Virus record (IMG/VR): IMGVR_UViG_2563366850_000002
Origin: a virus
Taxonomy: Duplodnaviria; Heunggongvirae; Uroviricota; Caudoviricetes
DNA: 3,198 nucleotides
Strand: one strand, 5' to 3'
The translations under genes and the position numbers were made by a program. The notes under the pieces were generated by a model, which saw nothing but the letters and a program-made list of their open reading frames with translations, ran no database searches and was not told the DNA's origin. This document shows positions 1 to 3,198 of the stretch, piece after piece. Each line of letters begins with the position of its first letter. Position 1 is the stretch's first letter.

Positions 1-351
1 ACCGTCGCCCCCGCCCGTCTGCGTGAGGCCATCAAGTCAGGCATGGCGGAGACGAATGCGGAGCTGTACGAGTACCGCGAACAGAAAATTGCCGCCGGTT
101 TTACGCGTCTGGCGGACGTCCCGGCGGACGACATCGACGGTGAAAGCATCAAGGTTTTTTACTACGAGCGCGCCGTGTGTGCGATGGCGACCGCGTCGCT
201 TTATGAGCGTTACCGCGGCGTGGATGCCAGTGCGAAAGGCGACAAGAAGGCCGACAGCATTGACAGCACCATTGATGAACTGTGGCGGGATATGCGCTGG
301 GCGGTGGCGCGTATCCAGGACAAGCCGCGCTGCATCGTGAGTCAAATCTGA
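1..351 (+). CDS. L: Head completion/stabilisation protein gpL (P2-like), C-terminal ~116 codons plus stop; 5' end lies outside the window start and the N-terminal part is at 3015..3198
   Basis: Frame 1 is open from position 1 and reads TVAPARLREAIKSGMAETNAELYEYREQKIAAGFTRLADVPADDIDGESIKVFYYERAVCAMATASLYERYRGVDASAKGDKKADSIDSTIDELWRDMRWAVARIQDKPRCIVSQI, ending at TGA 349..351. This matches my recollection of the P2 gpL C-terminus. The stop overlaps the next start by 1 nt (TGATG), as expected for adjacent phage late genes. Confidence 0.85.
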   Translation, partial: TVAPARLREAIKSGMAETNAELYEYREQKIAAGFTRLADVPADDIDGESIKVFYYERAVCAMATASLYERYRGVDASAKGDKKADSIDSTIDELWRDMRWAVARIQDKPRCIVSQI

Positions 352-554
352 TGAAGACCTTTGCGCTACAGGGCGACACGCTCGACGCCATTTGTGTCCG
401 GTATTACGGGCGCACTGAGGGCGTGGTCGAGACTGTGCTCGCCGCAAATCCGGGACTGGCTGAACTGGGTGCGGTGCTGCCGCACGGCACCGCCGTCGAA
501 CTGCCCGACGTTCAGACCGCGCCCGTGGCTGAAACTGTCAATCTGTGGGAGTAA
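351..554 (+). CDS. X: Tail protein X (P2 gpX-like, small LysM-like protein), 67 aa, apparently intact
   Basis: ATG at 351..353 and TAA at 552..554. The translation MKTFALQGDTLDAICVRYYGRTEGVVETVLAANPGLAELGAVLPHGTAVELPDVQTAPVAETVNLWE matches recalled P2 gpX in length and sequence. Native L-X-Y order is preserved. Confidence 0.85.
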   Translation: MKTFALQGDTLDAICVRYYGRTEGVVETVLAANPGLAELGAVLPHGTAVELPDVQTAPVAETVNLWE

Positions 555-557
555 CGC

Positions 558-842
558 ATGACAGCAGAAGAAAAAAGCGTCCTGTCGCTTTTCGTGATTG
601 GGGTGCTGATTGTTGTCGGCAAGGTGCTTGCCGGTGGTGAACCCATCACCCCGCGTCTGTTTATCGGGCGCATGTTGCTCGGTGGTTTTGTCTCGATGGT
701 TGCCGGTGTTGTTCTGGTGCAGTTTCCTGACCTGTCACTGCCTGCGGTGTGCGGCATCGGCTCCATGCTGGGTATCGCCGGTTATCAGGTGATTGAGATT
801 GCCATTCAGCGCCGCTTTAAGGGCAGGGGGAAGCGGAATTAA
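558..842 (+). CDS. Y: Holin (P2 gpY-like), 94 codons; the last 2-3 codons may derive from the junction with the V fragment
   Basis: ATG at 558 is preceded by GGGAG about 7 nt upstream. The translation MTAEEKSVLSLFVIGVLIVVGKVLAGGEPITPRLFIGRMLLGGFVSMVAGVVLVQFPDLSLPAVCGIGSMLGIAGYQVIEIAIQRRFKGRGKRN has hydrophobic transmembrane segments and a basic C-terminus, and matches recalled P2 holin gpY. TAA at 840..842. Confidence 0.85.
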   Translation: MTAEEKSVLSLFVIGVLIVVGKVLAGGEPITPRLFIGRMLLGGFVSMVAGVVLVQFPDLSLPAVCGIGSMLGIAGYQVIEIAIQRRFKGRGKRN

Positions 843-1104
843 AACGGCCAGCGTGACGGCTTCTGATTCTGTTACTGCCACGGTGCCGGTGGTCATGGTG
901 AAAGCATCAACCCGCGTCACCCTGGACACACCGGAGGTGGTCTGCACCAACAGGCTGATTACCGGCACGCTGGAAGTGCAGAAGGGCGGGACGATGCGCG
1001 GCAACATTGAACACACCGGCGGTGAACTCTCATCAAACGGGAAGGTACTGCATACCCATAAACACCCCGGCGACAGCGGCGGCACAACCGGGGGACCTCT
1101 ATGA
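832..1104 (+). pseudogene. V: 3' fragment (~90 codons) of baseplate spike gene V (P2 gpV-like); the 5' ~120 codons are missing and there is no native start
   Basis: Frame 1 reads SGIKTASVTASDSVTATVPVVMVKASTRVTLDTPEVVCTNRLITGTLEVQKGGTMRGNIEHTGGELSSNGKVLHTHKHPGDSGGTTGGPL, ending at TGA 1102..1104. This matches the recalled C-terminal third of P2 gpV. The six-frame ORF 793..1104 starts at an ATG inside the holin gene in another frame and is not a native start. The ATGA stop/start overlap with W is preserved. Confidence 0.8.
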
Positions 1105-1448
1105 CAGCGCGTTATCTCGGAATGAATCGCAGTGATGGCCTGACTGTCACTGACCTTGAGCATATCAGCCAGAGTATCGGCGATATCCTGCGCACGCCGG
1201 TCGGCTCACGGGTGATGCGTCGTGATTACGGCTCGTTGCTGGCGTCAATGATTGACCAGCCGCAGACCCCGGCGCTTGAGTTGCAGATTAAGGTCGCCTG
1301 TTACATGGCGGTGCTGAAATGGGAACCCCGCGTCACCCTGTCATCTGTCACCACGGCGCGCAGTTTTGACGGGCGAATGACGGTCACGTTAACCGGCCAG
1401 CACAACGACACCGGCCAGCCACTTTCGTTAACCATCCCTGTGAGTTGA
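1101..1448 (+). CDS. W: Baseplate wedge protein gpW (gp25/GPW family), 115 aa, intact
   Basis: ATG at 1101 overlaps the V stop (ATGA). The translation MTARYLGMNRSDGLTVTDLEHISQSIGDILRTPVGSRVMRRDYGSLLASMIDQPQTPALELQIKVACYMAVLKWEPRVTLSSVTTARSFDGRMTVTLTGQHNDTGQPLSLTIPVS matches recalled P2 gpW with the expected length. TGA at 1446..1448. Confidence 0.9.
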   Translation: MTARYLGMNRSDGLTVTDLEHISQSIGDILRTPVGSRVMRRDYGSLLASMIDQPQTPALELQIKVACYMAVLKWEPRVTLSSVTTARSFDGRMTVTLTGQHNDTGQPLSLTIPVS

Positions 1449-1452
1449 AACT

Positions 1453-1626
1453 ATGCCGATTATCGACCTGAACCAGCTACCCGCACCGGATGTGGTCGAG
1501 GAGCTGGACTTTGAAACCATTCTTGCCGAACGCAAGGCGACACTGATTTCCCTTTATCTGGGAGCTTTACGCCGCAACCGGTGTGGATGCCGTACCGATT
1601 CGTTTTGCAGGCTCTTACCAGCGTGA
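1453..1626 (+). pseudogene. J: 5' fragment of baseplate gene J (P2 gpJ-like): about 35 native codons (1453..~1557), then out-of-frame read-through into FII-derived sequence, stopping at TGA 1624..1626 (57-codon ORF)
   Basis: ATG at 1453 lies 4 nt after the W stop. The N-terminus MPIIDLNQLPAPDVVEELDFETILAERKATLISLY matches recalled P2 gpJ, then the sequence diverges (LGALRRNRCGCRTDSFCRLLPA*). Native gpJ is about 300 aa. Confidence 0.8.
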
Positions 1627-1861
1627 CGATACCGGCGAAACGGTGGCCGTCGAGGTGGTCATGCGTGGACGTCAGAAAGAAATCGACACCGGCGAGGGTA
1701 AACAGGGAGAAGACACCGAGTCGAAAATCTCCGTGGTCTGCACTTATTTCCGGCTGACGATGGACGGTAAGGAGCTGGTCGAAATTGACACCATCAACAT
1801 GATTGAGAAGGTGAACGGCGTCGACCGGCTGGAGCAACACCGCCGCAATATCGGCCTGTGA
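1553..1861 (+). pseudogene. FII: 3' fragment (~100 codons) of tail tube gene FII (P2 gpFII-like), copy 1; no native start codon
   Basis: Frame 2 reads (F)IWELYAATGVDAVPIRFAGSYQRDDTGETVAVEVVMRGRQKEIDTGEGKQGEDTESKISVVCTYFRLTMDGKELVEIDTINMIEKVNGVDRLEQHRRNIGL, ending at TGA 1859..1861. This matches the recalled C-terminal ~60% of P2 gpFII. There is an in-frame stop at 1544..1546. The tracked ORF 1583..1861 begins at an internal GTG with no Shine-Dalgarno. Confidence 0.8.
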
Positions 1862-1868
1862 TTTTCAT

Positions 1869-1889
1869 CCGGTCAGCCTGGCTGACCGG
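1869..1889 (+). other. Perfect inverted repeat/stem-loop in the FII-E intergenic region (CCGGTCAGC ctg GCTGACCGG), copy 1
   Basis: A 9-bp perfect stem with a 3-nt loop, 8 nt after the FII stop. No run of T follows it, so it is not a canonical intrinsic terminator. It may be an RNA stability or attenuation element within the operon. Confidence 0.5.
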
Positions 1890-1917
1890 TTAACCCTGAT
1901 TCATAAGTGAGAAAACC

Positions 1918-2106
1918 ATGAACAAAGAAAATGTCATTACCCTGGACAATCCGGTCAAACGTGGTGAGCAGGTTATCGAACAGGTCACGCTGATGAAACC
2001 CAGTGCCGGGACGCTGCGCGGTGTCAGTCTGGCAGCGGTCGCGAACTCCGAAGTCGATGCACTGATTAACGTGCTGCCGCGCATGACGAACGCAAGGCGA
2101 CACTGA
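1918..2106 (+). pseudogene. E: Truncated copy of tail assembly chaperone gene E: 57 native codons fused at the duplication junction to 5 non-native codons (NARRH) and a stop
   Basis: ATG at 1918. MNKENVITLDNPVKRGEQVIEQVTLMKPSAGTLRGVSLAAVANSEVDALINVLPRMT is identical to the start of the full E copy at 2478 except N versus K at one residue. It diverges after 2088 into J-derived sequence read out of frame. The frameshift site and E' extension are absent from this copy. Confidence 0.8.
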
Positions 2107-2112
2107 TTTCCC

Positions 2113-2421
2113 TTTATCTGGGAGCTTTACGCCGCAACCGGTGTGGATGCCGTACCGATTCGTTTTGCAGGCTCTTACCAGCGTGACGATACCGGCGAAA
2201 CGGTGGCCGTCGAGGTGGTCATGCGTGGACGTCAGAAAGAAATCGACACCGGCGAGGGTAAACAGGGAGAAGACACCGAGTCGAAAATCTCCGTGGTCTG
2301 CACTTATTTCCGGCTGACGATGGACGGTAAGGAGCTGGTCGAAATCGACACCATCAACATGATTGAGAAGGTGAACGGCGTCGACCGGCTGGAGCAACAC
2401 CGCCGCAATATCGGCCTGTGA
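2113..2421 (+). pseudogene. FII: 3' fragment of tail tube gene FII, copy 2 (duplicate of 1553..1861)
   Basis: Identical to copy 1 at a 560-nt offset except one synonymous difference (1786 T versus 2346 C, ATT/ATC Ile). TGA at 2419..2421. Confidence 0.8.
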
Positions 2422-2428
2422 TTTTCAT

Positions 2429-2449
2429 CCGGTCAGCCTGGCTGACCGG
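2429..2449 (+). other. Same inverted repeat/stem-loop, copy 2 (inside the duplicated unit)
   Basis: Identical sequence at a 560-nt offset. Confidence 0.5.
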
Positions 2450-2477
2450 TTAACCCTGATTCATAAGTGAGAAAACC

Positions 2478-2753
2478 ATGAACAAAGAAAATGTCATTAC
2501 CCTGGACAATCCGGTCAAACGTGGTGAGCAGGTTATCGAACAGGTCACGCTGATGAAACCCAGTGCCGGGACGCTGCGCGGTGTCAGTCTGGCAGCGGTC
2601 GCGAACTCCGAAGTCGATGCACTGATTAAGGTGCTGCCGCGCATGACGGCACCGATGCTGACCGAGCAGGAAGTCGCCGCGCTGGAACTGCCTGACCTTG
2701 TGGCGCTGGCCGGTAAGGTGGTCGGTTTTTTGTCGCCGAACTCGGTGCAGTAA
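2478..2753 (+). CDS. E: Tail assembly chaperone gpE (P2-like), 91 aa, intact; analogue of lambda G
   Basis: ATG at 2478, TAA at 2751..2753. The translation MNKENVITLDNPVKRGEQVIEQVTLMKPSAGTLRGVSLAAVANSEVDALIKVLPRMTAPMLTEQEVAALELPDLVALAGKVVGFLSPNSVQ matches recalled P2 gpE. The native position after FII is preserved. Confidence 0.9.
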   Translation: MNKENVITLDNPVKRGEQVIEQVTLMKPSAGTLRGVSLAAVANSEVDALIKVLPRMTAPMLTEQEVAALELPDLVALAGKVVGFLSPNSVQ

Positions 2754-2905
2754 CGTTCCCGAAAAATCTGTCGGTCGATGACCTGATGGCGGATGTGGCA
2801 GTGATATTTCACTGGCCGCCATCAGAACTGTATCCCATGAGCCTGACCGAACTCATCACATGGCGCGAAAAGGCGCTCCGGCGAAGCGGAAACACGAATG
2901 AGTAA
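2478..2905 (+). CDS. E': gpE+E' (P2-like), made by programmed -1 ribosomal frameshift at 2726..2732; extension ends at TAA 2903..2905 (about 142 aa total)
   Basis: The slippery heptamer T_TTT_TTG sits in the E frame near the E 3' end. The -1 frame downstream is open and reads VAELGAVTFPKNLSVDDLMADVAVIFHWPPSELYPMSLTELITWREKALRRSGNTNE*, matching the recalled P2 E' C-terminus. Confidence 0.8.
2726..2732 (+). promoter_or_regulatory. Programmed -1 frameshift slippery sequence (TTTTTTG) for E to E+E' recoding
   Basis: The heptamer T TTT TTG is in the X_XXY_YYZ register relative to the E frame (codons TTT 2727..2729, TTG 2730..2732), with an extended open -1 frame downstream. Recoding at this kind of site in P2-like E/E' and lambda G/GT is established knowledge. 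Confidence 0.75.
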
Positions 2906-3014
2906 CAATGTAAAATTACCGAATGCGCCCCGCGCCAGGGCGGCACGCCGGTCAGTGAGGGTGAATCACCTGACACTGCACCGGCGTCCACCGCCCGACT
3001 TTTCAGAGGTGGTC

Positions 3015-3198
3015 ATGATGACGCTGATTATTCCGCGAAAGGAGGCTCCCGTGTCCGGTGAGGGTACGGTGGTCATCCCGCAACCGGCAGGCGACGAGCC
3101 GGTGATTAAAAACACGTTCTTTTTTCCCGATATCGACCCGAAGCGCGTCCGGGAACGTATGCGCCTTGAGCAGACCGTCGCCCCCGCCCGTCTGCGTG
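3015..3198 (+). CDS. L: Head completion/stabilisation protein gpL, N-terminal 61 codons; continues beyond the window end and is in frame with 1..351
   Basis: ATGATG at 3015 is preceded by GAGGTGG 4 nt upstream. The translation MMTLIIPRKEAPVSGEGTVVIPQPAGDEPVIKNTFFFPDIDPKRVRERMRLEQTVAPARLR matches the recalled P2 gpL N-terminus. The last 25 nt are identical to window positions 1..25 and the frames agree. Confidence 0.85.
   Translation, partial: MMTLIIPRKEAPVSGEGTVVIPQPAGDEPVIKNTFFFPDIDPKRVRERMRLEQTVAPARLR
3174..3198 (+). repeat. Terminal 25-nt identity with window positions 1..25 (ACCGTCGCCCCCGCCCGTCTGCGTG), consistent with circular or tandem-unit topology with a 3173-bp unit
   Basis: Direct comparison of the window ends. 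Joining them reconstitutes a 510-nt (169 aa plus stop) gpL ORF, the expected size for P2 gpL. Confidence 0.9.

Follow-up and report, generated by a model that had tools for sequence, protein, structure and literature searches.

A 560-bp tandem repeat in a P2-like prophage contig of Escherichia coli KTE156: a probable assembly artefact beside two prophage deletions

The window, i.e., the whole 3198-bp stretch of DNA analyzed here, consists entirely of P2-like late-gene DNA. A BLAST comparison placed its bases at 97–100% identity to R18C and to the USMARC-51408 prophage, the one exception being a 41-nt second piece of J at 90%. Mapping to P2-like references revealed three gene groups that are not adjacent in a P2-like phage, L-X-Y, 'V-W-J' and 'FII-E-E'-T', whose pieces are co-linear and all lie on one strand (Table 1). 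Pfam assignments on the called genes comprised GPL, tail X, holin, GPW, tube and TAC_7. The co-linear arrangement of L, X, Y, V, W, J, FII, E/E' and T at high identity is that of a P2-like late region. The full lysis, tail and baseplate set of a functional phage is incomplete, with K, lysA-C, R, S, the 5' part of V, most of J, I, H, G, FI and the 5' part of FII absent from the window. Since lysis, tail and baseplate genes are missing, the prophage is defective.

Table 1. Features of the 3198-bp window, with positions counted from its first base. The sister assembly is GCA_000408785.1.
Feature	Position	Strand	Basis
M/L spacer, L, X, Y	2918–3198 and 1–832		P2-like mapping
V 3' part, W, first 104 nt of J	828–1564		P2-like mapping
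FII 3' part, E codons 1–57	1554–2088		P2-like mapping
41 nt of J, second time	2084–2124		P2-like mapping
FII 3' part, E, E', 22 nt of T	2114–2919		P2-like mapping
25-nt terminal direct repeat, identical to 3174–3198	1–25	+	Repeat search, self-comparison
Y/V deletion junction, AA shared	831–832	+	P2-like mapping, parent alignment; also in the sister assembly
J/FII deletion junction, TTA shared; repeated at 2114–2116	1554–1556	+	Mapping, parent alignment; also in the sister assembly
Repeat unit, copy 1: J codons 25–35, J/FII junction, 3' 305 nt of FII, FII-E spacer, E codons 1–57	1527–2088	+	Self-comparison, repeat search, P2-like mapping
Repeat unit, copy 2; runs unbroken into the remaining E, E' and the first 22 nt of T	2087–2648	+	Self-comparison, P2-like mapping
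Duplication junction: E nucleotide 171 to J nucleotide 75–77, CG common to both parents	2087–2088	+	Parent-versus-window alignment
Truncated E reading frame, 62 aa: 57 E codons and NARRH from J DNA	1918–2106	+	ORF list
Intact E (2478–2753), with E+E' to 2905	2478–2905	+	ORF list, P2 annotation, Pfam PF10109 on called gene
Variant 1: 1786 T versus 2346 C, synonymous in FII	1786	+	T as in the sister assembly and the closest prophage
Variant 2: 2070 C (Asn) versus 2630 G (Lys), E codon 51	2070	+	18 nt upstream of the duplication junction
149-nt stretch that is also the start of the next scaffold contig	2771–2919	+	Scaffold comparison
Closure junction: T nucleotide 22 to M/L intergenic DNA, 3 nt past the M stop codon; AC shared	2918–2919	+	Mapping, next-contig comparison, parent alignment

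The sole record matched by the window is KB733421.1 of GCA_000351965.1, an Illumina draft of E. coli KTE156, in which the window is one entire contig within a region of P2-like prophage. KTE156 gave no match in a literature search. Runs of N lie on either side of the contig, 6695 to the left and 4290 to the right. The left neighbouring contig stops at M codon 120, and the right one opens with the last 149 nt of the mapped 'FII-E-E'-T' piece, parts from the window exactly at 2919/2920 and carries on normally into T, followed by U, D and ogr. Gaps and contig together amount to 14.2 kb, against the ~3 kb expected from the contig's own content; this total is about equal to the M-to-T distance of an intact P2-like prophage (13.2–13.9 kb). 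The contig also closes on itself through its 25-nt end overlap, as a circle of 3173 bp, or of 2613 bp without the 560-bp repeat, lengths near the insert size of a presumed 3-kb mate-pair library. Loss of coverage driven by base composition was considered as the cause of the contig breaks and dropped, because GC ranges from 0.44 to 0.67 across the window with no extreme stretch.

The repeat consists of two head-to-tail copies with a period of 560, whose identity is unbroken but for two mismatches in an offset-560 self-comparison, and the repeat search agrees. Tandem Repeats Finder, which has a period limit of 500, reported no repeat in the window, and the period was established by offset comparison in its place. 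At the duplication junction the E parent reads ...ATGACG|GCA and the J parent ...TTGCCG|AACG, with exactly CG in common. The initial annotation, drawn up from the DNA letters, had described a tandem duplication with these boundaries, two substitutions with their coding effects, a 2-nt CG overlap at the joint and a J/FII junction enclosed in the unit. The self-comparison proved the repeat, its limits and the substitutions to be accurate, alignment of the window with the parent sequences confirmed the overlap, and the mapping placed the J/FII junction inside the unit. Overlooked in that annotation was the circular closure of the contig, a mosaic that has two more junctions beyond those of the duplication and of J/FII.

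Only the downstream copy of E is complete. It carries a slippery T-run at 2726–2731, which is the E/E' frameshift site in the P2 annotation, and an overlapping E', so that the arrangement of the gpE/gpE' programmed −1 frameshift is found in this copy alone; the T gene starts at 2898. The upstream E ends after codon 57, in agreement with the earlier claim that only the downstream E retains the frameshift site. Among public records, the 62-aa product of the truncated frame occurs in KTE156 only (scaffold KB733421.1). Truncations or fusions of gpE at codons 50–59, many of them independent, were also observed in other public gpE proteins (P0137, P0140, P0158, P0159, P0175, P0176, P0218 and P0006), in a list that holds cluster representatives only and is biased by the 62-aa length of the query. 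Codons 50–59 of gpE may be a rearrangement-prone spot, or the pattern may simply reflect this query bias. A widespread truncation of gpE at codon 57–58 was considered as the origin of the duplication breakpoint and set aside.

Four novel junctions were found in the window: Y/V, J/FII, the duplication junction and the closure of T onto the M/L spacer. The Y/V deletion spans ~3.58 kb and removes K, lysA, lysB, lysC, R, S, an orf30-like gene and the 5' 360 nt of V, while the J/FII deletion, of ~6.8–7.5 kb, removes the rest of J, I, H, G, FI and the first ~71 codons of FII. Exact microhomology of 2–3 nt is present at all four junctions (AA, TTA, CG and AC), a result expected in only ~0.06% of cases for four random blunt joins; at J/FII the exact TTA lies within an imperfect match of 8/11 bases.

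Only one further record, KE137287.1 of GCA_000408785.1 (the sister assembly), contains the J'-FII fusion reading frame and the altered holin that result from the deletion junctions. Its scaffold starts at the equivalent of window position 154 and continues free of N through Y/V, W, J/FII, a single FII-E copy, E', T, U, D, ogr, pflB, focA and ycaO, with neither the duplication nor the T-to-L closure. With the E-derived base 2086 of the duplication junction set aside, its only differences from the window are G at 2070 and T at 2346, and hence each KTE156 unit copy has one base that is absent from the sister assembly. Because two assemblies agree on them, the Y/V and J/FII deletions are taken as real. 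The statement in the initial annotation that the J-FII deletion came first fits an assembly that has the deletion without the duplication.

The E/J duplication junction is absent from 5426 complete E. coli genomes and from IMG/VR, and the J/FII and Y/V junctions are likewise missing from these complete genomes. Contigs from metagenomes, GTDB representatives and viruses gave no match to the J/FII junction; as this junction would accompany any copy of the duplication, its absence there bears on the duplication as well. No plasmid record contains the mosaic. In the collections searched, the Y/V and J/FII deletions are lineage-specific.

At the FII site C is the commonest natural E. coli allele and T the minority one, and a 57-mer with C at this site has an exact match in 1167/1546 complete-genome records. 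The E site is naturally G/A (9 vs 7 in a panel of P2-like loci), and the C at 2070 has an exact match in 0/1238 records. To find both copy differences on natural polymorphic sites would be unlikely for random mutations that followed a duplication; it is the pattern expected with alleles of different prophage copies, or with ambiguity where such copies differ.

The flanking DNA carries a similar signal. In the T-U-D-ogr flank, KTE156 and the sister assembly differ at 10 clustered sites, 9 of them synonymous (L005 15572–20189 vs L007 2058–6675), and at 10/10 of these sites the KTE156 flank has the allele of the USMARC-51408 prophage. This pattern suggests two prophage allele sets or recombination; in gene D, the KTE156-type and sister-type alleles are both common. 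Moreover, across the two drafts, three ends of contigs or scaffolds sit one base from natural polymorphic sites. The two bases that follow the left flank end at M codon 120 are polymorphic (L002 3434–3435), site 2770, just before the right flank start at 2771, is naturally G/C, and site 153, before the sister scaffold start at 154, is naturally A/G. Ends beside polymorphic sites are the pattern produced by two alleles with shared flanks in an assembly graph, which points to at least two P2-like prophages per genome.

The idea that all four breakpoints are glued branch points of such a graph was borne out in part. Two natural SNPs fall at or close to the J side of the duplication junction (offsets 0 and −3). 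Beside the T22 breakpoint the P2-like panel showed no natural polymorphism, the M/L breakpoint has one rare variant only, 11 nt away, and, like these two sides of the closure, both deletion junctions are not at SNPs. Dozens of unrelated drafts contain partial proteins with identical break positions (M codon ~120, several in L, and E codons 54–58).

We favor, at a probability of about 60%, the reading in which both deletions are real and the duplication is an artefact, either a repeat that the assembler failed to resolve or a mis-join, that mixes paralogous prophage copies. KTE156 would carry a P2-like prophage made defective by the real Y-to-V and J-to-FII deletions, together with at least one other P2-like prophage, which we infer to share long identical stretches with it. 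The 'FII-E-E'-T segment would then occur more than once in the read set, with alleles differing at natural polymorphic sites. An assembler unable to separate these copies could have produced a gap-flanked, self-closing contig in which the shared segment is passed twice, one pass with the T allele of FII and the other with the C allele. The passes would have been joined, on poor support, at E nucleotide 171, and nothing outside the contig backs this join. The 560-bp duplication, and probably the T-to-L closure, would accordingly not be chromosomal features. Chimeric mate-pair reads could supply the closure, the circle length of 2613–3173 bp being close to a 3-kb insert. The observations on which this reading draws are the provenance of the contig, its gaps and self-overlap, the lack of the duplication in the sister assembly and the character of the variant sites.

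Several points speak against an artefact. A junction with a 2-nt overlap is beyond a k-mer graph assembler, and reads joining E171 to J and T22 to M/L must exist. The two uncorroborated junctions also appear to resemble the two corroborated ones in their microhomology, a 560-bp circle is hard to reconcile with a 3-kb mate-pair chimera, and a real repeat could have been collapsed in the sister assembly. The scarcity of natural polymorphism beside the T22 and M/L breakpoints counts on the same side.

A possible, though rather unlikely, alternative is a real duplication that arose in the KTE156 lineage by a microhomology event after the J/FII deletion and left 560 bp head to tail in the defective prophage. 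Its source could be slippage during replication, a template switch or unequal exchange at CG, and it would have left behind a dead 5' piece of E and another FII fragment. Its junction stands in the deposited sequence, and some reads must back the E/J join; its 2-nt microhomology is like that of the two deletion junctions seen in two assemblies. The unit includes the J/FII junction, with the sister assembly as the pre-duplication state, and the base change near the duplication junction could reflect error-prone repair synthesis. However, the duplication is missing from the only other assembly with this prophage and from all collections searched, and both copy differences occupy natural polymorphic sites, one of them being the common allele, which would be rare for random mutation. 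The remainder of the contig is the same as in the sister assembly, which means that the duplication would not be old, and gaps flank a contig whose ends overlap. Two copies side by side in head-to-tail order and a single novel junction, as in a genuine duplication, are present in the deposited contig only; independent support came neither from a second assembly nor from other genomes, and the copy differences are not those of post-duplication mutation. The proposal in the initial annotation of a real microhomology-mediated or slippage duplication that is "not brand new" is thus unsupported, given the identity of the rest of the contig to the sister assembly and the polymorphic variant sites. 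Its own alternatives, slightly different templates or assembly errors, are the better fit to a gap-flanked, self-overlapping contig from a genome with apparently at least two P2-like prophages.

It is improbable that all four junctions are real and that serial template switching gave rise to a 3.17-kb mini-derivative, as an array or an excised circle, with a nested 560-bp duplication and a junction-associated point mutation. Also improbable is the related proposal that the 3173-bp sequence exists as a real circle or as a tandem array in the chromosome, in which four microhomology template switches would have built a mini-derivative from the P2 late region, with the 560-bp repeat as one of its joints. 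The sequence does close on itself with a 25-nt overlap and a junction at 2918–2919, its segments are co-linear and on the same strand with 2–3 nt of microhomology at each junction, and the large flanking gaps could represent more copies. Against this, every base belongs to P2 late genes: the window holds only late structural and lysis genes with their spacers, and with no ori, cos, rep gene or other initiator or packaging site it would neither replicate nor be packaged. The P2 ori is located in gene A. In addition, the mosaic is in no plasmid record, the sister scaffold leads from the same mosaic directly into T-U-D-ogr-pflB, and the left flank ends 387 bp before the expected start of an array. 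A small plasmid or satellite is ruled out by the same absence from plasmid records and of replication and packaging functions.

The contig behaves like short-read artefacts in repeated prophage regions in being gap-flanked, in overlapping itself and its neighbour, in ending at allelic sites and in containing alleles of two paralogues within one contig. It is unlike pure k-mer graph errors in its 2-nt overlaps, which call for some additional source, for instance chimeric mate-pair reads or a patching step. With microhomology-mediated tandem duplications it shares head-to-tail copies, 2-nt homology at the junction and a unit that postdates the deletion; it departs from them in a junction without independent support and in copy differences on allelic rather than random sites.

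The prophage itself resembles defective P2-like (Peduovirus) prophages of E. coli, such as the NCTC9041 remnant by pflB, in gene order and near-identity, and like defective Peduovirus prophages the window has internal deletions of tail and lysis genes. The sister-scaffold prophage adjoins ogr-pflB. Unlike other P2-like remnants, which have different breakpoints, the Y/V and J/FII junctions occur only in KTE156 and one other draft. Other P2-like remnants from E. coli or metagenomes (L011, L012, L013, L014 and L017) have FII cut at its 5' side and joined to O, a methylase region or kinases. This 5'-cut FII with varied partners shows frequent independent decay of the region.

The Y/V and J/FII deletions represent ordinary prophage decay, and the duplication is ordinary as well, whether real or an artefact. 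If true, it would be another functionally inconsequential rearrangement of a prophage in decay, with the E/E' pair still intact and the additional pieces of E and FII being dead fragments. The case calls for caution, as a seemingly clean microhomology duplication with diverged copies stands in an untrustworthy contig.

Two short sequence elements were also detected in the window. A palindrome, CCGGTCAGCCTGGCTGACCGG, lies in the FII-E spacer of both unit copies (1869–1889 and 2429–2449), with a 9-bp stem, a centroid energy of −16.5 kcal/mol and a z-score of −2.6; having no T tail, it is not a canonical intrinsic terminator. An Rfam search of the window matched no family, and a structured RNA was set aside on this ground. 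An exact 14-nt repeat, GGTGAAAGCATCAA, occurs at 139–152 in L and at 897–910 in V, with a chance expectation of ~0.02 per such window, and the sister scaffold begins two bases past the L copy of this repeat.
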